Assembly (NCBI RefSeq): GCF_050920415.1
Contig: NZ_CP169309.1
DNA: 64,000 bases
Reading direction: 5' to 3' (one strand)
DNA from: Escherichia coli
GTDB taxonomy: Bacteria > Pseudomonadota > Gammaproteobacteria > Enterobacterales > Enterobacteriaceae
Made by a program: the position numbers and the translations under genes. Below the pieces are notes generated by a model. The model was not told the DNA's origin. It worked only from the letters and a program-made list of their open reading frames with translations, and made no database searches. Below are positions 5,658 through 34,492 of this stretch, one piece after another; the first letter of the stretch is position 1; each line of letters opens with the position of its first letter.

Positions 5658-6083
5658 ATGTTAGGTATTTTCAAAAAGAAAACCCGCAAGGCCATCACAG
5701 AAGTGAAGAAGATGGAGAACCGTGATGCGGTGGAGGCGACCGTCTGGGGCGCATATTCCATTGCATATGCCGACGGCACCTGCGATGCGAAAGAAATCGC
5801 AGTACTGGAGAAAACTATTGCTGCGCTTCCTGCTTTTGCACCGTTCTCTGGTGAGATTGCCCAGATGAGCGCCAATATCCGCGCCCGTTATGAAGCGTCA
5901 CCGCGTAGTGCGAATGCGCATGCATTGCGTGAGCTGGCTGATGTGGCGGGGACAACTGAGGCGGTTGACGTGCTTTGCCTCTGTCTGGATATCGCTGATC
6001 AGGATGGCATTGGTCCGGATGAAGAAGCGCAGCTCAAGAAAATTGCACAGGCGCTTCAGTTACCACTGGAGCAGTATCTGTGA
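5658..6083 (+). CDS. TerB-like (tellurite-resistance TerB / DjlA N-terminal domain family) protein
   Basis: 141-aa helical protein whose acidic C-terminal motif (LCLCLDIADQDGIGPDEEAQLKKIAQAL) is typical of TerB-domain proteins. Confidence 0.55.
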   Translation: MLGIFKKKTRKAITEVKKMENRDAVEATVWGAYSIAYADGTCDAKEIAVLEKTIAALPAFAPFSGEIAQMSANIRARYEASPRSANAHALRELADVAGTTEAVDVLCLCLDIADQDGIGPDEEAQLKKIAQALQLPLEQYL

Positions 6084-6232
6084 AAAGTGCGGGCCTTGTG
6101 CTGGCTGCCATCCTGTTGTTTCTGGTAGTGGCAGTGGATTTCACTGGATGGCTGATGTCGGTACTGGCTGATGGTGTGCTGGTGGCGATGGTAACGGTCT
6201 TACTCTGGCCTTTACTTCGCAAATCTGAATAA
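6080..6232 (+). CDS. Possible small hydrophobic membrane protein (about 50 aa, GTG start overlapping the TerB-like stop)
   Basis: Unannotated frame reading VKSAGLVLAAILLFLVVAVDFTGWLMSVLADGVLVAMVTVLLWPLLRKSE; two hydrophobic stretches; start codon uncertain. Confidence 0.3.
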   Translation: MKSAGLVLAAILLFLVVAVDFTGWLMSVLADGVLVAMVTVLLWPLLRKSE

Positions 6233-6317
6233 ACAGCCTACAAAAGGTATCTGCGGGTACCTTTGATAAAGTTTTTTAGGGCCGCTGATGGTCCTTTTTA
6301 TTTACAGGAGAATAAAT

Positions 6318-6710
6318 ATGTCTGAACCCTTATCCGGTTCCGGCACTGCTGTGGCGCTCGGCGGGGCGACGGTATTCGGGCTGTTTACCGGGACGGATTT
6401 CGGGATTGTATTTGGTGCGTTCGCTGGTGCGTTATTTGTGGCAACAATGCCGCAGACACTTTCAGCCTGGCGTGTGGCTGCACATTTTCTGGTGTCCTTT
6501 ATTGTTGGTGTGCTTGGGGCCCGTGGTGTGGCCGGTTACATGGCGGAACGTATTGGGTTTAACAGTGCTTCCGTTGATGCGTTGTGTGCGGTCCTGGTGT
6601 CGGTGCTCTCAGTAAAAGTCCTGTCATTCATCCACCAGCAGGAGATTACATCACTGGTATCCGGTCTGTTCTCCCGTCAGCGTGGAGGAGGTGGTGGTAA
6701 TGACAAATAA
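6318..6710 (+). CDS. Putative holin (multi-TM membrane protein, Gly-rich C-terminus)
   Basis: ATG at 6318 preceded by AGGAG; about 3 hydrophobic helices; lies upstream of the endolysin. Confidence 0.55.
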   Translation: MSEPLSGSGTAVALGGATVFGLFTGTDFGIVFGAFAGALFVATMPQTLSAWRVAAHFLVSFIVGVLGARGVAGYMAERIGFNSASVDALCAVLVSVLSVKVLSFIHQQEITSLVSGLFSRQRGGGGGNDK

Positions 6711-6978
6711 TCTTCCAGGATTACTGAATGCGGCGTTATGTACGGTTATCGTACTGACGCTTTTTTTCTACCGCAGAAAAGAGTCCCGACACAAACCGCT
6801 GATATCGTGGTGCGCCTGGTGTCTGATGCTGTTGTATGCGATAACGCCGTTAAGTTATCTCTGTGGTCATCCGTTGCCGGCAGACTGGCTGGTAGTGATG
6901 CTGAACCTGGTGTTTGGTGTCATGGTAGTGCGTGCGCGCGGTAATGTTTCAAAAATTTTTGCTTTCCTGAGTGGCTGA
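6700..6978 (+). CDS. Putative holin/antiholin-like small membrane protein
   Basis: 92-aa hydrophobic protein (start MTNNLPGLL) overlapping the preceding gene's end and the endolysin start. Confidence 0.5.
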   Translation: MTNNLPGLLNAALCTVIVLTLFFYRRKESRHKPLISWCAWCLMLLYAITPLSYLCGHPLPADWLVVMLNLVFGVMVVRARGNVSKIFAFLSG

Positions 6979-7525
6979 TATGAAATCGAGAGATGAAATT
7001 TTTGATGAAATCCTCGGAAAAGAGGGGGGGTATGTCAGTCATCCTGACGATACAGGCGGAGCGACGAAGTGGGGAATTACTGAAAAAGTGGCGCGCGCGC
7101 ATGGTTACCGTGGTGATATGCGTGATTTGAGCCGCGGGCAGGCTCTGGAAATCCTTGAGGCAGACTATTGGTATGGACCTCGTTTTGACCAGGTGGCAAA
7201 CCTGTCTCCTGATATTGCTGCAGAACTGTGTGATACCGGGGTAAACATGGGGCCGTCGGTAGCCACAAAAATGCTTCAGCGCTGGCTGAATGTGTTTAAT
7301 CAGAAGGGAATGCTGTATCCGGACATAGTTACAGACGGGGGGATCGGGCCGCGAACCATTAATGCGTTACGTTCTTATCTGAAAAATCGCGGCAGGGATG
7401 GCGAACTGGTACTGGTGAAAGCCCTGAACTGTACGCAGGGTGAGCGTTATCTGGCGCTGGCAGAGAAACGCGAGGCTAACGAGTCGTTTGTCTATGGCTG
7501 GATGAAAGAGCGCGTTGGTTTATAA
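6971..7525 (+). CDS. Endolysin, glycoside hydrolase family 108 with C-terminal peptidoglycan-binding domain
   Basis: N-terminal EILGKEGGYVSHPDDTGGATKWGI motif characteristic of GH108 lysozymes. Confidence 0.85.
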   Translation: MADMKSRDEIFDEILGKEGGYVSHPDDTGGATKWGITEKVARAHGYRGDMRDLSRGQALEILEADYWYGPRFDQVANLSPDIAAELCDTGVNMGPSVATKMLQRWLNVFNQKGMLYPDIVTDGGIGPRTINALRSYLKNRGRDGELVLVKALNCTQGERYLALAEKREANESFVYGWMKERVGL

Positions 7526-7533
7526 ACTCATCG

Positions 7534-7558
7534 AAAAGGTCACTTCGGTGGCTTTTTT
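7534..7558 (+). terminator. Rho-independent terminator with UUCG tetraloop (aaaaggtcac-ttcg-gtggc + T-run)
   Basis: Stem with G-U wobble pairs, UUCG loop, T-run of 6, immediately after the endolysin stop. Confidence 0.5.
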
Positions 7559-7726
7559 ATTGTTCAAAAAACGAAAGAACGGAGGTACGTATGTACGCAC
7601 TGAAAAAGATTACGGTAACTGAAGATGGTCGTCAGTAGACTGGCCCCCTGAATCTCCAGACAACCAGTATCACTTAAATAAGTGATAGTCTTAATACTAG
7701 TTTTTAGACTAGTCATTGGAGAACAG

Positions 7727-8092
7727 ATGATTGATGTCTTAGGGCCGGAGAAACGCAGACGGCGTACCACACAGGAAAAGATCGCAATTGTTCAGCAGAG
7801 CTTTGAACCGGGGATGACGGTCTCCCTCGTTGCCCGGCAACATGGTGTAGCAGCCAGCCAGTTATTTCTCTGGCGTAAGCAATACCAGGAAGGAAGTCTT
7901 ACTGCTGTCGCCGCCGGAGAACAGGTTGTTCCTGCCTCTGAACTTGCTGCCGCCATGAAGCAGATTAAAGAACTCCAGCGCCTGCTCGGCAAGAAAACGA
8001 TGGAAAATGAACTCCTCAAAGAAGCCGTTGAATATGGACGGGCAAAAAAGTGGATAGCGCACGCGCCCTTATTGCCCGGGGATGGGGAGTAA
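7727..8092 (+). CDS. insC: IS2 transposase OrfA (InsC)
   Basis: Translation [41 protein letters not shown]... matches IS2 InsC. Confidence 0.9.
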
Positions 8093-8955
8093 GCTTAGTC
8101 AGCCGTTGTCTCCGGGTGTCGCGTGCGCAGTTGCACGTCATTCTCAGACGAACCGATGACTGGATGGATGGCCGCCGCAGTCGTCACACTGATGATACGG
8201 ATGTGCTTCTCCGTATACACCATGTTATCGGAGAGCTGCCCACGTATGGTTATCGTCGGGTATGGGCGCTGCTTCGCAGACAGGCAGAACTTGATGGTAT
8301 GCCTGCAATCAATGCCAAACGTGTTTACCGGATCATGCGCCAGAATGCGCTGTTGCTTGAGCGAAAACCTGCTGTACCGCCATCGAAACGGGCACATACA
8401 GGCAGAGTGGCCGTGAAAGAAAGCAATCAGCGATGGTGCTCTGACGGGTTCGAGTTCTGCTGTGATAACGGAGAGAGACTGCGTGTCACGTTCGCGCTGG
8501 ACTGCTGTGATCGTGAGGCACTGCACTGGGCGGTGACTACTGGCGGCTTCAACAGTGAAACAGTACAGGACGTCATGCTGGGAGCGGTGGAACGCCGCTT
8601 CGGCAACGATCTTCCGTCGTCTCCAGTGGAGTGGCTGACGGATAATGGTTCATGCTACCGGGCTAATGAAACACGCCAGTTCGCCCGGATGTTGGGACTT
8701 GAACCGAAGAACACGGCGGTGCGGAGTCCGGAGAGTAACGGAATAGCAGAGAGCTTCGTGAAAACGATAAAGCGTGACTACATCAGTATCATGCCCAAAC
8801 CAGACGGGTTAACGGCAGCAAAGAACCTTGCAGAGGCGTTCGAGCATTATAACGAATGGCATCCGCATAGTGCGCTGGGTTATCGCTCGCCACGGGAATA
8901 TCTGCGGCAGCGGGCTTGTAATGGGTTAAGTGATAACAGATGTCTGGAAATATAG
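8050..8955 (+). CDS. insD: IS2 transposase OrfB (InsD), DDE integrase-type
   Basis: 301-aa translation matches IS2 InsD; overlaps insC in the -1 frame as in IS2. Confidence 0.9.
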
Positions 8956-9236
8956 GGGCAAATCCAGTCAGGTTGAGGAAGTGCATGTCCTGGGGGGATA
9001 TGTATCGTATGGAGTTTTACCCGCGTAATACCCATCTGGCAGCAAAAATTGAGTATTGCCGGAACGGGAATATTTCATGTTTGCAGGTAGAGAAAACGGA
9101 TGAGGCTTATATCACTACGCTGAACGGCGATACGATGTCAGCGCCAATGATATAAGACAGTAATTCACCATTTGGATTGTCCGCTCCACCCAACATGTTG
9201 TTTCCTTAAGGTTCCTACACCACAAAGGGAACACTC

Positions 9237-11202
<1,966 letters not shown>

Positions 11203-11419
11203 TGACCAATAGCGGACATTAAAAATGGCGAAAAACGGCCAATAATCTTGGCGTTGACAACGATGCGTTGCATCTGTCGCGGCGACAGTAAAGCCCGGAA
11301 TGAAATGGCCAGATGTCGTACTCATACCAGTGAATAACAAGTAAAACCCCGGCGGCTGAAACAACCAAGGGGTTAACAGTGTAAATAAAACTGCCCATAT
11401 TGATGGGCAGCGCATGTAA

Positions 11420-11713
11420 TTATTGTGAGCAATAGACCCGAGCTTCAAGCGGAGTATAAATGCCTAAAGTAATAAAACCGAGCAATCCATTTACGAATGT
11501 TTGCTGGGTTTCAGTTTTAACAACTTTATCTGCGCCACCACAAATTTTGGCTGCATCGACAGTTTTCTTCTGACCAATTCCTGAAACGAAGAAATGATGA
11601 GTGATGGTTTCCTTCGGTGTTACTGTTGTAGGTTTGTTTTCAACTGTAAACGTCTGTTGAGCACATCCAGAGATAAGCAGCGCCAGTGTGAAAGTGAGTA
11701 GCGTTTTTTTCAT
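11420..11713 (-). CDS. bor: Bor lipoprotein (lambda Bor/Iss family)
   Basis: 97-aa translation with lipobox LLISGC, recognisably matching lambda Bor; minus strand between lysis region and cos as in lambda. Confidence 0.9.
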   Translation of the reverse strand: MKKTLLTFTLALLISGCAQQTFTVENKPTTVTPKETITHHFFVSGIGQKKTVDAAKICGGADKVVKTETQQTFVNGLLGFITLGIYTPLEARVYCSQ

Positions 11714-11937: not shown

Positions 11938-12348
11938 TTAGCGTGGAAAAATTTGAGTCGTGTTCTGGATGCTTTCGGTAAACAATAATGAGTTGTCAAA
12001 GGTATAGTAATATCTTTTGTGTTCGTGGATATTTGTAACCCATCGGAAAACTCCAGCTTTAGCCAGATTTACCCTGTATTCATGAAATGTGATTTCTCTT
12101 GATTTCAACTTATGAAGGTAAGTTTCTATAAGTCGCGTGTCTCTGCAAAAGCTAACATGAATAACATCATGGAAACCTTTTATTAACACCGTGTTATCGC
12201 TCTCAAATACAATGTGAATATTACCTGTGGCTAAATAGTAAATGTAATGTGAGACATTGTGGCGTTTTAGTTCAGAGTAAAACCGGTCACAGTTTAAATC
12301 TTTCCGCACTTGATCAAATATTTCTTTAAAAATGGCAACCTGAGCCAT
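11938..12348 (-). CDS. Uncharacterised protein (136 aa), AT-rich moron
   Basis: Minus-strand ORF in the bor-cos interval; AT-rich codon usage; no family recognised. Confidence 0.5.
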
Positions 12349-12919: not shown

Positions 12920-13597
12920 TAGCGGGTTTTCGCTATTTACGAGTTTTTTTGAGGTGATGGTTGTTGTTTTATCGTTTGATATATCTACTTGATAAGTAAT
13001 AAGAAAGAAAAATAAACACAACAACCTGATGATCTTTCTTATACGAAAAAGCATGTAAAATCAGAGGGTTTTACAAAAAACGTGGTTGTTGTATTGCTTT
13101 TTTGCCGGTGGTTTATGGAGGGGCTGTGGCCTTTTTATTGAATAAAAGCGACATGGCCTCCTCCATCGGTATCTCAGTACAGGCATTTGATAAATGGGGT
13201 GTTCCTCCTGTTGAGCGCCGGGGGAGAGAGGTTTTCTATGACGTTAAAACTGTACTGGAGATAGATCGCGAGCGACGTCAACAAAACCAGAAATCTTCAG
13301 GTGGTGAAAATGATCTTGAGGAAAGGCTACTTCAGGCCAGGGTTAACCTGACGGAAGAACAGGCTATTGCTCAGCGGTTAAAAAACCAGGTTGCAGAGCA
13401 TAAGGTGATTGATACAGCTTTCTCTATTTTTGCCCTGTCCCGGTTATCCGGAGAACTGGCATCTGTTTTGGACAGTATTCCGCTTTCGATGCAAAGAAAA
13501 TTCCCTGAATTGACAGGCAGACAATTGGCTTATCTAAAAGAGCTGGTTGCGAAGGGGGCTAATAAATGCGTTGAGTCCGCTGAAAAAATGAAGGAAT

Positions 13598-20094: not shown

Positions 20095-20493
20095 ATGACG
20101 AAAGATGAACTGATTGCCCGTCTCCGCTCGCTGGGTGAACAACTGAACCGTGATGTCAGCCTGACGGGGACGAAAGAAGAACTGGCGCTCCGTGTGGCAG
20201 AGCTGGAAGAGGAGCTTGATGACACGGATGAAACTTCCGGTCAGGACACCCCTCTCAGCCGGGAAAATGTGCTGACCGGACATGAAAATGAGGTGGGATC
20301 AGCGCAGCCGGATACCGTGATTCTGGATACGTCTGAACTGGTCACGGTCGTGGCACTGGTGACGCTGCATACTGATGCACTTCACGCCACGCGGGATGAG
20401 GCTGTGGCATTTGTGCTGCCGGGAACGGCGTTCCGTGTCTCTGCCGGTGTGGCAGCTGAAATGACAGAGCGCGGCCTGGCCAGAATGCAATAA
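20095..20493 (+). CDS. FI: DNA packaging protein FI
   Basis: 132 aa from ATG 20095 (MTKDELIARLRSLGEQLNRDVSLTGTKEELA...) matches lambda FI. Confidence 0.9.
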   Translation: MTKDELIARLRSLGEQLNRDVSLTGTKEELALRVAELEEELDDTDETSGQDTPLSRENVLTGHENEVGSAQPDTVILDTSELVTVVALVTLHTDALHATRDEAVAFVLPGTAFRVSAGVAAEMTERGLARMQ

Positions 20494-20504
20494 CGGGAGG
20501 CGCT

Positions 20505-20879
20505 GTGGCTGATTTCGATAACCTGTTCGATGCTGCCATTGCCTGCGCCGATGAAACGATACGCGGGTACATGGGAACGTCAGCCACCATGACATCCGGT
20601 GAGCAGTCCGGTGCTGTGATACGTGGTGTTTTTGATGACCCTGAAAATATCAGCTATGCCGGACAGGGCGTGCGCGTTGAAGGCTCCAGCCCGTCCCTGT
20701 TTGTCCGGACTGATGATGTGCGGCAGCTGCGGCGCGGCGACACGCTGACCATCGGTGAGGAAAACTTCTGGATAGACCGGATTTCGCCGGATGATGGCGG
20801 AAGCTGTCATCTCTGGCTTGGGCGGGGCGTACCGCCTGCCGTTAACCGTCGCCGCTGGAAGGGGGATGTATGGCCATAA
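20505..20879 (+). CDS. FII: Head-tail connector protein FII
   Basis: Translation MADFDNLFDAAIA...DETIRGYMGTSAT matches lambda FII. Confidence 0.9.
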   Translation: MADFDNLFDAAIACADETIRGYMGTSATMTSGEQSGAVIRGVFDDPENISYAGQGVRVEGSSPSLFVRTDDVRQLRRGDTLTIGEENFWIDRISPDDGGSCHLWLGRGVPPAVNRRRWKGDVWP

Positions 20880-28310: not shown

Positions 28311-28370
28311 TGCAAAATGTTTTATGTGAAACCGCCTGCGGGCGGTTTTATCGTTTATGGAGCGTGAGGA

Positions 28371-31300
28371 ATGGGTAAAGGCAGCAGTAAGGGGCATACC
28401 CCGCGCGAAGCGAAGGACAACCTGAAGTCCACGCAGCTGCTGAGTGTGATCGATGCCATCAGCGAAGGGCCGGTTGAAGGTCCGGTGGATGGATTAAAAA
28501 GCGTGCTGCTGAACAGTACACCTGTGCTGGACAGTGAGGGGAATACCAATATCTCCGGCGTCACGGTGGTGTTCCGGCCGGTGAGCAGGAGCAGACACCG
28601 CCGGAGGGGTTTGAATCCTCCGGCTCCGAGACGGTGCTGGGTACGGAAGTGAAATACGACACGCCGATCACCCGCACCATTACGTCTGCAAACATCGACC
28701 GTCTGCGCTTTACCTTCGGTGTACAGGCACTGGTGGAAACCACCTCAAAGGGTGACAGGAATCCGTCGGAAGTCCGCCTGCTGGTTCAGATACAACGTAA
28801 CGGTGGCTGGGTGACGGAAAAGGACATCACCATTAAGGGTAAAACCACTTCACAGTATCTGGCCTCGGTGGTGGTGGATAACCTGCCGCCGCGCCCGTTC
28901 AGTATCCGGATGCGCAGGATGACGCCGGACAGCACCACAGACCAGCTGCAGAACAAAACGCTCTGGTCGTCATACACTGAAATCATCGATGTGAAACAGT
29001 GCTACCCGAACACGGCACTGGTTGGCGTACAGGTGGACTCGGAACAGTTCGGCAGTCAGCAGGTGAGCCGTAATTATCATCTGCGCGGGCGCATTCTGCA
29101 GGTGCCGTCGAACTATAACCCGCAGACGCGGCAATACAGCGGTATCTGGGACGGAACGTTTAAACCGGCATACAGCAACAACATGGCCTGGTGTCTGTGG
29201 GATATGCTGACCCATCCGCGCTACGGCATGGGGAAACGTCTTGGTGCGGCGGATGTGGATAAATGGGCGCTGTATGTCATCGGCCAGTACTGCGACCAGT
29301 CAGTGCCGGACGGCTTTGGTGGCACGGAGCCGCGCATCACCTGTAATGCGTACCTGACCACACAGCGCAAGGCGTGGGATGTGCTCAGTGATTTCTGCTC
29401 GGCGATGCGCTGTATGCCGGTATGGAACGGGCAGACGCTGACGTTCGTGCAGGACCGACCGTCGGATAAGGTGTGGACCTATAACCGCAGTAATGTGGTG
29501 ATGCCGGATGATGGCGCGCCGTTCCGCTACAGCTTCAGCGCCCTGAAGGACCGCCATAATGCCGTTGAGGTGAACTGGATTGACCCGGACAACGGCTGGG
29601 AGACGGCGACAGAGCTTGTTGAAGATACGCAGGCCATTGCCCGTTACGGTCGTAATGTCACGAAGATGGATGCCTTTGGCTGTACCAGCCGGGGGCAGGC
29701 ACACCGCGCCGGGCTGTGGCTGATTAAAACGGAACTGCTGGAGACGCAGACCGTGGATTTCAGCGTGGGTGCTGAAGGGCTTCGCCATGTACCGGGCGAT
29801 GTCATTGAAATCTGCGATGATGACTATGCCGGTATCAGCACCGGTGGTCGCGTGCTGGCGGTGAACAGCCAGACCCGGACGCTGACGCTCGACCGTGAAA
29901 TCACGCTGCCATCCTCCGGTACCACGCTGATAAGCCTGGTTGACGGAAGTGGCAATCCGGTCAGCGTGGAGGTTCAGTCCGTCACCGACGGCGTGAAGGT
30001 AAAAGTGAGCCGTGTTCCTGACGGTGTTGCTGAATACAGCGTATGGGGGCTGAAGCTGCCGACGCTGCGCCAGCGACTGTTCCGCTGCGTGAGTATCCGT
30101 GAGAACGACGACGGCACGTATGCCATCACCGCCGTGCAGCATGTGCCGGAAAAAGAGGCCATCGTGGATAACGGGGCGCACTTTGACGGCGAACAGAGTG
30201 GCACGGTGAATGGTGTCACGCCGCCAGCGGTGCAGCACCTGACCGCAGAAGTCACTGCAGACAGCGGGGAATATCAGGTGCTGGCGCGCTGGGACACGCC
30301 GAAGGTGGTGAAGGGCGTGAGCTTCCTGCTTCGCCTGACCGTGGCAGCGGATGACGGCAGTGAGCGGCTGGTCAGCACGGCCCGGACGACGGAAACAACA
30401 TACCGCTTCAGGCAGCTGGCGCTGGGGCGGTACACGCTGACAGTCCGGGCGGTAAATGCGTGGGGGCAGCAGGGCGATCCGGCATCGGTATCGTTCCGGA
30501 TTGCCGCACCGGCAGCGCCGTCGCGGATTGAGCTGACGCCGGGCTATTTTCAGATAACCGCCACGCCGCATCTTGCGGTTTATGACCCGACGGTACAGTT
30601 TGAGTTCTGGTTCTCGGAAAAGCGGATTACCGATATCAGGCAGGTTGAAACCACAGCCCGCTATCTTGGTACGGCGCTGTACTGGATAGCCGCCAGTATC
30701 AATATCAAACCGGGCCATGATTATTACTTTTATATCCGCAGTGTGAACACCGTTGGCAAATCGGCATTCGTGGAGGCTGTTGGTCAGCCGAGTGATGATG
30801 CTTCCGGCTATCTGGATTTTTTCAAAGGAGTGATAGGGAAAACACACCTGGCTCAGGAGCTGTGGACGCAGATTGATAACGGTCAGCTTGCGCCTGACCT
30901 GGCTGAAATCAGGACGTCCATTACGGATGTCAGCAATGAAATCACACAGACCGTCAATAAGAAACTGGAAGACCAGAGTGCAGCGATCCAGCAGATACAG
31001 AAGGTTCAGGTTGATACAAATAATAACCTGAACAGCATGTGGGCTGTGAAGCTGCAGCAGATGCAGGACGGACGCCTTTATATCGCGGGTATCGGTGCCG
31101 GTATTGAGAACACCCCTGACGGCATGCAGAGTCAGGTGCTGCTGGCGGCGGACAGGATTGCGATGGTTAATCCTGCGAATGGCAACACAAAACCGATGTT
31201 TGTTGGTCAGGGCGATCAGATATTCATGAACGACGTGTTCCTGAAGCGCCTGACGGCCCCCACCATTACCAGCGGCGGCAATCCCCCGGCCTTTTCCCTG

Positions 31301-31849
31301 ACACCAGACGGAAAGCTGACCGCTAAAAATGCGGATATCAGTGGCAGTGTGAATGCGAACGCCGGGACGCTCAATAATGTCACGATTAATGAGAACTGTC
31401 AGATTCTGGGGAAACTGTCAGCTAATCAGATTGAAGGCGATATTGTTAAAACGGTGGGTAAGGCTTTCCCCCGTGACTCCCGGGCACCGGAGCGGTGGCC
31501 GTCAGGGACCATTACCGTCAGGGTTTATGACGATCAGCCTTTTGACCGGCAAATTGTCATTCCGGCGGTGGCATTCAGCGGTGCCAGACATGAGAGAGAG
31601 CATAATGACATTTATTCATCATGCCGTCTGATAGTGCGGAAAAACGGTGCTGAAATTTATAACCGTACCGCGCTGGATAATACGCTGATTTATACCGGTG
31701 TGATTGATATGCCAGCGGGTCGCGGTCACATGACGCTGGAGTTTTCGGTATCAGCGTGGCTGGTGAATGACTGGTATCCCACGGCAAGCATCAGCGATTT
31801 GCTGGTTGTGGTGATGAAGAAATCCACAGCCGGTATCAGTATCAGCTGA
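28371..31849 (+). pseudogene. J: Central tail fibre / host-specificity protein J, disrupted by a 1-nt frameshift near 28578; C-terminal receptor-binding region appears divergent from lambda J
   Basis: N-terminal 93-aa ORF (28371..28652) matches the J N-terminus; the rest (28634..31849) continues in another frame. Confidence 0.8.
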
Positions 31850-31907: not shown

Positions 31908-34492
31908 ATGGCAGTAAAGATTTCAGGCGTGCTGAAAGACGGTGCAGGTAAACCGGTACAGAACTGCACCATTCAGCTGAAAGCAAAACGTAACAGTACC
32001 ACGGTGGTGGTGAACACGGTGGCCTCAGAAAATCCGGATGAAGCCGGGCGTTACAGTATGGACGTTGAGTACGGCCAGTACGGTGTCATCCTGCTGGTTG
32101 AAGGTTTTCCGCCGTCACATGCCGGCACCATCACCGTGTATGAAGATTCTGAGCCGGGGACGCTGAATGATTTTCTCGGTGCCATGACGGAGGATGATGC
32201 CCGTCCGGAGGCACTGCGCCGTTTTGAACTGATGGTGGAAGAGGTGGCGCGTAACGCGTCCGCAGTGGCACAGAACACGGCAGCCGCGAAAAAATCCGCC
32301 GGCGATGCCGGAACATCTGCCCGTGAGGCGGCAACCCATGCGACTGATGCTGCAGGCTCAGCACGCGCCGCCAGCACGTCCGCCGGACAGGCTGCGACGT
32401 CAGCACAGGAAGCATCTTCCGGCGCAGAAACAGCCTCAGCAAAGGCCGCTGAGGCATCAAAAAGTGCTGCCGCTGCAGAGTCCTCAAAAAGCGCGGCGGC
32501 CACCAGTGCCGGTGCCGCGAAAACGTCAGAAACGAATGCGGCAGCGTCACAACAATCAGCCGCCACGTCTGCATCCACCGCGACCACGAAAGCGTCAGAA
32601 GCTGCCACGTCAGCCAGGGATGCGGCGGCCTCAAAAGAGGCGGCAAAATCATCAGAAACGAGCGCAGCCTCGAGCGCCGGTAGTGCAGCTTCCTCGGCAA
32701 CGGCGGCAGGAAATTCCGCGAAGGCGGCAAAGACGTCTGAGACGACGCCAGGTCTTCTGAAACGGCAGCGGAACAGAGTGCCTCCGCAGCAGCAGGCTCA
32801 GAAACTGCCGCTGCATCATCGTCCCGTGAGGCGTCAGTTAAAGCGGAGGAGGCATCAGCCAGTGCCACCGCCGCCGGAAAATCGGCAGAAAGTGCCGCAT
32901 CGTCCGCTTCAGCAGCCACAACGAAGGCTGGCGAAGCCACTGAACAGGCCACTGCAGCAGTGAGGTCTGCTTCCGCTGCGAGGACATCCGAGACGAACGC
33001 GAAAGCGTCGGAAACCCGTGCAGAATCTTCAGAAACGGCTGCCGTATCGTCCGCCAGTTCGGCGGCGTCATCAGCATCATCGGCGTCAGCTTCAAAAGAT
33101 GAGGCGGCAAGGCTGGCGTCAGAGGCGCAGGGCAGTGCCACGACGGCATCCGCGAAGGCGACAGAGGCAGCTGGCAGTGCGACAGCGGCAGCACAGAGCA
33201 AAAGCACGGCAGAATCCGCGGCAACGCGCGCCGAGACTGCGGCAAAACGGGCGGAGGATATTGCGTCTGCCGTGGCGCTTGAGGATGCGAGCACGACGAA
33301 AAAGGGGATAGTCCAGCTCAGCAGTGCAACCAACAGCACTTCCGAGTCACTGGCGGCAACACCAAAGGCCGTAAAAGCCGCCTGTGAGAATGCTGAGAAA
33401 CGACTGCAGAAAGATAAGAACGGTGCGGATGTCCCCGACAAAGACACCTTTACGAAAAATATTGGTGCCTGCCGTGCCTTCGGTGGGGCCGTAAGCACAA
33501 CGACAGGAGACTGGACGACCGCACAGTTTATCGGGTGGCTGGATTCTCAGGGCGCATTTAACCACCCATACTGGATGTGCAAGGGCTCCTGGTCTTACGG
33601 TAATAATAAAATCATCACGGATACGGGCTGCGGAAATATTCATCTCGCCGGCGCTGTCATTGAGGTGATGGGGATAAAGTCAGCGATGACGATCCGCATA
33701 ACCACACCGACAACATCCAGCGGAAGTGGAACGGCGAATGCGCAGTTTACCTATATTAATCATGGTGATGGTTATTCCCCTGGCTGGCGTCGTGACTACA
33801 ACACGAAAAACAAGCCACCGGCCTTTGCGCTGGGAAAAACCGGGGAAACGCTCGCCGATACAGATGCCGTCGCCTGGAACCTGGACAGTGGCGCTTATTG
33901 TGCACAGGATGGTGGCGCATCATCCTTAATTCTTCATTTTAATACAGGGGAAGGCAGCTGCCCCGCGGTCCAGTTTCGGGTGAATTACCGGAATGGCGGG
34001 ATATTTTACCGCTCCGCCCGTGATGGCTATGGCTTTGAGGCGGACTGGGAGCGTCTGTTCACGACAACGGGCGGGACCCTGGAAGGTGCTGTGGGTATCG
34101 GTGCACAGAATACGCTGGGCGGCCATTCACTTGCGCTGGGGAGGGGCGACACAGGCCTGAAACAAAACGGCGACGGTAATCTTGATGTTTACGCCGGTAA
34201 CGCACGTGTAATGCGCTTTACAAACGGCAGCATTCAGGTCAGTAAAGGGCTGAATGTGTCCGGGCGCGTTAATCCTTCCGATTACAGTAATTTTGATATC
34301 CGCTATGTCAGGGATATCCGGCTGGGTACGCGTGTTGTTCAGGGCATGCAAAAAGGCGTGACGTATGAGAAATCCGGCCATGTCATTACGGGGCTTTGTC
34401 TTGTCGGGGATGCTGATGGCGATAACTCAGCGGTTTACCGGCCGGTGCAAAAATACATAAACGGCACATGGTTTAACGTATCGCAGGTATAA
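31908..34492 (+). pseudogene. stf: Side tail fibre protein Stf, disrupted by a 1-nt frameshift near 32747 within the Ala/Ser/Thr-rich repeat region
   Basis: N-terminus MAVKISGVLKDGAGKPVQNCTIQLKA... and the conserved GIVQLSSATNSTSESLAATPKAVKAA motif lie in different frames; genuine repeat sequence continues in the other frame across 32741. Confidence 0.75.

Follow-up and report, generated by a model that had tools for sequence, protein, structure and literature searches.

We analyzed the lysis genes of a lambda-like prophage in Escherichia coli. The stretch of DNA that we examined, which we will call the window, is 64,000 nucleotides (nt) of contig NZ_CP169309.1. The lysis cassette of this prophage encodes two holins and a soluble endolysin of glycoside hydrolase family 108 (GH108), and it has no spanin, the function that Rz and Rz1 supply in lambda. 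We propose that the spanin-less state is probably the product of mosaic module exchange: a lysis block without a spanin would have been joined to a lambda-type bor module near the end of a former Rz gene. If so, the cassette is otherwise canonical, and its predicted phenotype is that of a spanin null. The lysis genes and the feature that follows them are:

6318..6710, plus strand: holin 1; 130 amino acids, about 3-4 transmembrane domains (TMDs, from hydropathy), Phage_holin_8 family
6700..6978, plus strand: holin 2 (second holin or antiholin); 92 amino acids, 3 TMDs, Phage_holin_3_7 family
6980..7525, plus strand: soluble endolysin; 181 amino acids, GH108 N-acetylmuramidase domain and PG_binding_3
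7533..7558, plus strand: intrinsic-terminator-like hairpin; 11-bp stem, UUCG loop, and T-run (from a pattern scan)

Holin 1 matches phrog_198 ("holin", E = 1.7e-39) and Phage_holin_8 in Pfam (PF16931, E = 2.6e-22), and NCBI's Prokaryotic Genome Annotation Pipeline (PGAP) calls it a "putative holin" in identical relatives. Holin 2 matches phrog_217 (also "holin", E = 1.9e-35) and Phage_holin_3_7 (PF05449, E = 3.9e-21); it has a net charge of +6, and the first 11 nt of its gene are shared with the end of holin 1. The endolysin matches PF05838 (Glyco_hydro_108, E = 3.5e-25), PF09374 (PG_binding_3, E = 1.9e-24), and phrog_315. It is acidic (net charge -2), with 0 predicted TMDs and no signal or signal-arrest-release (SAR) segment. 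The three genes are all on the plus strand and overlap or tightly abut each other. In the literature, we found no usable experimental work on holins of the PF16931 or PF05449 families or on lysis by phiP27.

The cassette lies between Q (1436-2101, phrog_304) and the terminase open reading frames (ORFs), which start at 13102. It is part of a complete lambda-like late operon, which is entirely inside the window from Q to the tail-fibre assembly gene, and the order of the genes is the same in annotated, near-identical genomes. Given the late-operon position, and the multi-TMD holins beside a signal-less hydrolase, we identify these genes as the lysis cassette in the late operon of a lambda-like prophage. 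It is of the phiP27 type: phiP27 (L28-L30), phiSTEC1575-Stx2k, Rac-SA53, and SerU-LTIIb have the same two holins, in the same order and with the same overlap (~80% nt identity), followed by one soluble endolysin, and their cassettes are also located between Q or morons and the terminase. Rac-SA53 and SerU-LTIIb have a GH108 endolysin as well. In contrast, phiP27 and phiSTEC1575 have an M15 peptidase instead of GH108, and they have a downstream lipoprotein where the window has bor and a DUF1398 gene.

The missing spanin and the joint with the bor module

To look for spanins, we scanned all six frames of the 64 kb, from all possible starts, for lipoprotein signals, with both strict and relaxed patterns. 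Bor, on the minus strand, was the only credible match, and the rest were spurious antisense ORFs. A scan of the prophage for the layout of an i-spanin (a single N-terminal TMD and a tail of 50-240 residues) returned antisense ORFs and pieces of known genes, and nothing else. Searching the window with tblastn gave no matches for lambda Rz, lambda Rz1, or Rz from phage GER2, or for the small lipoprotein and small transmembrane proteins of related prophages. Thus, neither the o-spanin nor a PF03245-type i-spanin of a two-component system was found within the window. Nor did we find a unimolecular spanin like gp11 of T1: Bor is the sole ORF with a lipobox and it lacks a C-terminal TMD. A heuristic scan for disruptin-like ORFs (small, with a net charge of at least +6 and a Shine-Dalgarno-like motif) returned only holin 2 and out-of-frame ORFs inside known genes. 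PGAP's annotation of the whole prophage in a genome that is 99.7-99.99% identical does not include a spanin either.

We conclude that the absence of a spanin is real and is not an artifact of how the frames were read. An initial annotation, made from the letters of the window, had described two holin-like genes, a GH108 endolysin, a UUCG-loop terminator, and no recognisable spanin. The Pfam and PHROG matches agree with it on the holins and the endolysin, with small corrections to the coordinates; the scans and tblastn searches agree with it on the spanin. It had proposed a search for an embedded lipobox ORF at 6971-9236, and across all frames of the 64 kb only Bor turned up.

Downstream of the cassette, the window resembles lambda:

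11377..11419, no strand: left edge of the lambda-like bor module; ~12-nt remnant of the 3' end of Rz and an inverted repeat (from blastn and a four-way alignment)
11420..11713, minus strand: bor, an outer-membrane lipoprotein moron (phrog_260, E = 6.4e-56); on the opposite strand and not a lysis gene
11938..12348, minus strand: DUF1398 gene, the counterpart of lambdap78 in lambda (phrog_413; "DUF1398" in PGAP); collinear with lambda

In blastn, homology between the window and lambda starts at about 11377, which corresponds to 12 nt before the stop codon of lambda Rz (lambda has CAGTGCAGATAG and the window has CAGTGTAAATAA). From there it extends, at 86-88% identity, across an inverted repeat (TGCCCAT…ATGGGCA), which in lambda lies between Rz and bor, and across bor itself and the DUF1398 gene. 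The boundary is in the same place in E. coli 1303, where the scar of Rz is cleaner and the left flank is different. Because the lambda homology begins in the last 12 nt of Rz, and because E. coli 1303 shares the boundary, we attribute this arrangement to modular recombination at a gene boundary.

In the proposed exchange, a block comprising TerB, DUF3927, the two holins, GH108, the terminator, and a small gene that we call p93 would have been joined to a lambda-type block of bor and DUF1398. The bor module would formerly have been behind Rz. With the joint inside the last ~12 nt of the former Rz, Rz/Rz1 would have been left out, and the incoming lysis block would have supplied no spanin.

What would lysis look like? 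Most likely, it would follow the canonical three steps with the last of them missing. Late transcription, antiterminated by Q, would read through the hairpins that bracket the cassette. At a programmed time, one or both holins would open the inner membrane, and the signal-less muramidase would escape and degrade the peptidoglycan. Without a spanin, the small lipoprotein of relatives, or a disruptin, the outer membrane would not be actively breached and would be left to mechanical failure. We predict a phenotype like that of a lambda Rz/Rz1 null, in which cells become spherical, burst only if they are sheared or if the outer membrane is weak, and do not burst in millimolar divalent cations. In shaken cultures, spanin nulls do still lyse, but they arrest as spheres once divalent cations stabilise the outer membrane (PMC6139136). 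We infer the roles of the two holins, the read-through of the terminators, and this phenotype.

Relatives of the two-holin module and other routes through the outer membrane

Among 5,426 complete E. coli genomes, 357 contain the two-holin module, and 108 of these have the GH108 endolysin. We classified 68 relatives, which were drawn from E. coli genomes, from phage records, and from IMG/VR. These are loci (with labels such as L041) that reach the terminase or that have at least 4 kb of downstream sequence. Downstream of the cassette, we found:

Small lipoprotein (phrog_7528): 48 of 68 loci
M15 endolysin and small lipoprotein, without Rz, bor, or p93: 31 of these 48 loci
Lambda-type Rz: 4 of 68 loci, one of which also has the small lipoprotein
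bor only: 9 of 68 loci
None of lipoprotein, Rz, or bor: 8 of 68 loci

The four Rz-bearing relatives are all from E. coli (L041, L049, L050, and L076). Rz1 was found by the lipobox scan in three of them and by a weak tblastn hit in the fourth. Also, Proteus prophages encode a homologous pair of holins (32-34% identity), followed by an endolysin and a PF03245-type Rz. Since Rz-type genes accompany the same holin module in both of these groups, the cassette is not intrinsically spanin-free. These gene neighborhoods suggest that the holin pair is compatible with classical spanins, and nothing in them suggests that it replaces spanins.

Several observations weigh against module exchange with a spanin-null outcome. 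The scar of Rz in the window is only about 12 nt and is diverged (it is clearer in E. coli 1303), and the ancestral state may have been either Rz-bearing or lipoprotein-bearing. Neither Rz nor the small lipoprotein is present in 17 of the 68 complete relatives. About 10 complete E. coli genomes, of varied origin, contain a near-identical spanin-less version, so the arrangement could be functional and maintained rather than defective. Finally, both "holins" are predictions from sequence, and either could have an additional activity.

These observations lead to the alternative that fares best, namely that one of the "holins," DUF3927, or the GH108 enzyme has a hidden outer-membrane disruption function, so that lysis is complete without a spanin. 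Besides the quarter of complete relatives that lack both Rz and the small lipoprotein, and the recurrence of the spanin-less form in several E. coli genomes, this would fit with the ~13% of phages of Gram-negative hosts that have no identifiable spanin (PMC6139136); at least one of them, phiKT, uses a different protein (bioRxiv 10.1101/515445). We nevertheless consider it unlikely. The two holins, which are the constant part of the module, co-occur with Rz-type genes in four relatives from E. coli and in Proteus, and the endolysin has no predicted membrane segment, is acidic, and is interchangeable among relatives (either GH108 or M15). Our heuristic scan did not find a stand-alone cationic amphipathic ORF. 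The initial annotation had suggested an outer-membrane step that was either different or absent: the presence of the holin module beside Rz elsewhere, and the ~12-nt scar of Rz, mostly favor "absent" and disfavor "different." Module exchange that left out Rz/Rz1 is still our preferred explanation.

The spanin might instead be supplied in trans, by Rz/Rz1 from other lambdoid prophages in the same chromosome, which strikes us as quite improbable. Spanin genes of different phages can replace each other; for instance, a lambda Rz-am Rz1-am lysogen served as the host in an assay of plasmid-borne spanin genes of T4 (PMC6139136). But the 64-kb window contains no other prophage, and the rest of the host's chromosome lies outside it. 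It is common for an E. coli genome to contain several lambdoid prophages that have copies of Rz/Rz1, but the late genes of resident prophages are normally silent without their own Q.

It is very unlikely that the cassette is, or is becoming, a domesticated module akin to type 10 secretion, which would release cargo (from the periplasm or encoded by the prophage) without full lysis. The similarity is that type 10 systems (TtsA and ChiH/ChiP in Salmonella, ChiWXYZ in Serratia) combine a holin with a muramidase of the N4-gp61/GH108 type, and the Salmonella systems lack spanins (PMC13284979). Also, toxin genes flank some related cassettes (Stx2e in phiP27, Stx2k in phiSTEC1575, and LT-IIa and EplBA in Rac-SA53). 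However, each type 10 system is a chromosomal operon that stands by itself, with dedicated regulators and a defined cargo, while the window's cassette is in its standard place in a complete lambdoid late operon under Q. There is no adjacent gene for a secreted cargo (the neighbors are TerB, DUF3927, bor, and DUF1398), and the match to NF040573, the holin-associated muramidase family in NCBIfam, is 74 bits, far below its cut-off of 240 bits. We do not count the cassette as a type 10 secretion system.

The small lipoprotein of the relatives is 51-60 amino acids, with a lipobox of LVGC and a mature form of 30 amino acids (CVSLDKARQLFDTASQVCEIVDGVRQCLQN). Its gene is found in 303 of the 5,426 complete E. 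coli genomes. Examples are L043:7053-7235, L007:4743-4925, L009:4851-5006, L003:4070-4252, and L002:5090-5245 (phiP27 20706-20861). In the commonest layout, it starts ~20 nt past the M15 endolysin gene (L043, with the same offsets in L048, L053, and L079). L076 and phage GER2 have the small lipoprotein together with Rz/Rz1, so that any role as a spanin substitute would be putative.

In phiP27, this downstream lipoprotein of 51-60 amino acids was listed as the o-spanin (Kongari et al. 2018). We set aside the i-spanin that was proposed in the same survey (20348-20542 in phiP27, or L002:4732-4926): it has a TTG start, has no match in PHROG, and is antisense to a conserved ORF of 90 amino acids (phrog_36812). 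This ORF is also missing from most of the relatives that have the lipoprotein and from the commonest layout, in which the lipoprotein directly follows the endolysin. The published assignment of a two-component spanin to phiP27, which is the shortest in that survey, looks doubtful from these comparisons.

A broader claim would be that E. coli prophages with Phage_holin_8 and Phage_holin_3_7 generally lack a two-component spanin, that most of them use the lipoprotein of 30 mature residues without an inner-membrane partner, and that the variants without the lipoprotein still lyse efficiently. We think that this is doubtful. If true, it would mean that a lambdoid phage has a spanin-independent route to rupture of the outer membrane.

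The surroundings of the lysis module are a moron hotspot. In Rac-SA53 (L001:4815-5955), LT-IIa is directly after the GH108 endolysin and EplBA is before the holins. Stx2e in phiP27 (L002:1886-3121) and Stx2k in phiSTEC1575 (L003:1-676) are before the holins. In one group of relatives, whose cassette is 85% identical, a gene from a mechanosensitive-channel family follows the GH108 endolysin, in the place of p93 and bor (L006:4764-5771).

Insertion sequences, p93, and the state of the prophage

Between the terminator and bor, the window contains two insertion sequences (ISs), which interrupt p93:

7591..7635, plus strand: 5' fragment of p93 (codons 1-15); phrog_33497; 93 amino acids when intact
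7636..8966, plus strand: IS2; 1331 bp, with a 5-bp target duplication (GTCAG) at 7631-7635 and 8967-8971
8967..9135, plus strand: middle fragment of p93 (residues 22-70 by tblastn, and DNA alignment with intact homologs)
9136..11259, plus strand: IS21-family element; 2124 bp, istA/istB, with ends TGTCAGCGCC...GGCGTTGACA and a target duplication (ACGA) at 9132-9135 and 11260-11263
11260..11337, plus strand: 3' fragment of p93 (…RCICRGDSKARNEMARCRTHTSE; residues 56-93 by tblastn, and alignment), with the stop codon at 11335-11337

The first element has imperfect terminal inverted repeats and two overlapping ORFs (7682-8092 and 8050-8955); from its ends and these ORFs, we take it to be IS2 and the ORFs to be its transposase. 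The second element has ORFs at 9237-10283 and 10405-11202 and TG...CA termini (TGTCAG.../...TTGACA), and in a near-identical genome, PGAP annotates its genes as "IS21 family transposase" and "IstB." From an internal repeat, we had placed the boundaries of this element at about 9179-11218; alignment to an IS-free genome replaced these with 9136-11259.

If both ISs and one copy of each target duplication are excised in silico, the result is 99.8% identical, end to end, to the IS-free prophage of E. coli 357900 (NZ_CP038859) over 1641 nt. PGAP's annotation of that prophage has the same order of genes (holin, holin, GH108, a frameshifted hypothetical protein, bor, DUF1398, and terminase) and no spanin. 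Genome MFDS1022581, which is 99.7-99.99% identical to the window, contains the IS21-family element but not IS2, with the same flanks. Because the target duplications are intact, and because excision rebuilds the IS-free relative, these were simple, successive transpositions and nothing was deleted. Both ISs are later arrivals that landed cleanly in a p93 that, from the alignments, appears to have been frameshifted already.

The initial annotation had raised the idea that the spanins were lost to these insertions. Although the two ISs occupy the very place, between the endolysin and bor, where one would look for Rz/Rz1, deletion by transposition or by an IS-mediated rearrangement is almost certainly wrong: both elements have perfect target-site duplications, precise excision gives a relative that is equally spanin-less, and the near-identical genome with the IS21-family element alone keeps the same flanks.

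As the initial annotation had noticed, IS2 cuts a short ORF with a good ribosome-binding site (RBS): there is an ATG at 7591, behind a GGAGG motif, and 15 codons before the insertion. This is p93, which we assigned to phrog_33497 (E = 2.9e-50). An intact homolog of 93 amino acids (MYALKKITVMEDGRQ…RCICRGDTKARNEIARCRTQGSK) is encoded by phage phiSTEC1575-Stx2k (L003:3542-3823). In the window, alignment with intact homologs identified a +1 frameshift (an extra G in the G-run at 8992-8997). The IS-free relative has the frameshift too, and PGAP flags the gene there as "frameshifted." With three lesions (IS2, the IS21-family element, and the frameshift), p93 is a pseudogene in the window. The sequence after the IS21-family element (…GVDNDAL…) was considered as a remnant of the C terminus of Rz, but in the correct frame it is the C terminus of p93 (RCICRGDSKARNEMARCRT), which matches the phiSTEC1575 homolog.

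Inspection of the p93 sequence shows five cysteines, a net charge of 0, and no TMD or signal, and we found no match for p93 in Pfam or NCBIfam. The family is conserved across Enterobacterales; its members are about 80-93 amino acids and are found in prophages of E. coli, Salmonella, Edwardsiella, Proteus, Providencia, and Xenorhabdus (for instance, L093:4001-4249). They are always near lysis genes, but their place varies: in E. coli, p93 follows the endolysin, and in Proteus, it is between Q and the holins. We also considered p93 as a disruptin or another lysis factor. We rejected this because of its neutral charge, the lack of a TMD, signal, or domain match, its position upstream of the holins in Proteus, and its being a pseudogene here. 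We conclude that p93 is an accessory gene of the late region and is neither a spanin nor a lysis gene.

The hairpin at 7533-7558 begins 8 nt after the stop codon of the endolysin. Its predicted folding energy is -12.4 kcal/mol (z = -4.3), and none of 200 shuffled sequences was as stable. The relatives have three different hairpin sequences, yet the T-run and the downstream RBS are unchanged, which argues that the hairpin is a genuine structural element. With a stable, GC-containing hairpin followed by a U-run, it is a predicted Rho-independent terminator, as first supposed. An ORF that overlaps this hairpin (7515-7622; TTG start, 35 amino acids, cationic) was rejected as a gene: the N-terminal half of its product is hairpin sequence, and it is not conserved at the protein level in relatives.

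A second terminator-like hairpin with a T-run is at 6278-6295, immediately upstream of the RBS of holin 1, so that the lysis genes are bracketed by hairpins. Directly upstream (5658-6232) are a TerB-family gene (phrog_632) and a gene for a 50-amino-acid DUF3927 membrane protein (phrog_1470, "TciB-like"). In other E. coli prophages (L004, L006, and L009), this pair, or DUF3927 alone, also precedes the cassette. The two hairpins may insulate the lethal lysis genes from transcription of the TerB/DUF3927 morons in the lysogen.

Comparison with a near-identical genome indicates that rspB and ydfJ flank the integrated prophage. Its end within the window is at a truncated ydfJ, and the integrase end, beside rspB, is outside the window (from comparison with NZ_CP169399). 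From about 35030 to 64000 comes ordinary chromosomal sequence of E. coli, which includes ydfI, dcp, the mar operon, and, close to the end, lsr genes.

Compared with a 99.9% identical genome, the tail-tip gene J (28369-31849) has an apparent 1-nt deletion in a G-run at ~28575, and this deletion splits its ORF. The tail-fibre region (31908-34492) is likewise divided between two ORFs, with a single-base gap where the tail-fibre gene is compared with that of a near-identical genome. The lesions in J and the tail fibre indicate either a defective prophage or sequencing errors in homopolymers. Together with the triple-hit p93, these frameshifts are apparent signs of decay.

Comparison to known lysis systems and significance

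The window's cassette has the late-operon position of S-R-Rz/Rz1-bor in lambda, and a similar bor-lambdap78 module, and the three-step logic of lysis applies to both. It differs in having holins and an endolysin with no relationship to S and R, and in having no Rz/Rz1 beyond the terminal scar.

Phages without spanins form a recognised class, with 91 of 677 genomes in one survey (Kongari et al. 2018). The window resembles the strictest cases in that survey, with no candidate lysis lipoprotein in any frame. However, none of the spanin-less phages listed there is lambdoid, and here the recombinational origin is visible and there are further apparent frameshifts. One alternative to spanins has been characterised, the disruptin gp28 of phiKT, which is a small (about 56 amino acids), strongly cationic, amphipathic peptide (bioRxiv 10.1101/515445). 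In contrast to phiKT, the window has no gp28-like gene. We consider the window to be an addition to the spanin-less class, with a documented recombinational origin.

For the locus itself, these results are mostly clarifying: the ISs are incidental, and the ORF that they interrupt is not a lysis gene. More broadly, how phages of Gram-negative hosts manage without spanins is an acknowledged problem, for which the disruptin is the only alternative mechanism that has been described. The window adds a lambdoid case in a genetically tractable host, with an absence that is probably traceable to a recombination joint and is not due to poor annotation. Its practical value would be mainly as a negative control when asking whether the tiny lipoproteins that occupy the spanin slot in relatives (in ~300 of 5,426 E. 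coli genomes) form a new outer-membrane disruptor. That small lipoprotein, which is outside the window but is in the spanin slot of most relatives, is the more promising lead, and the comparison does not support the inner-membrane partner that was proposed for it in phiP27.

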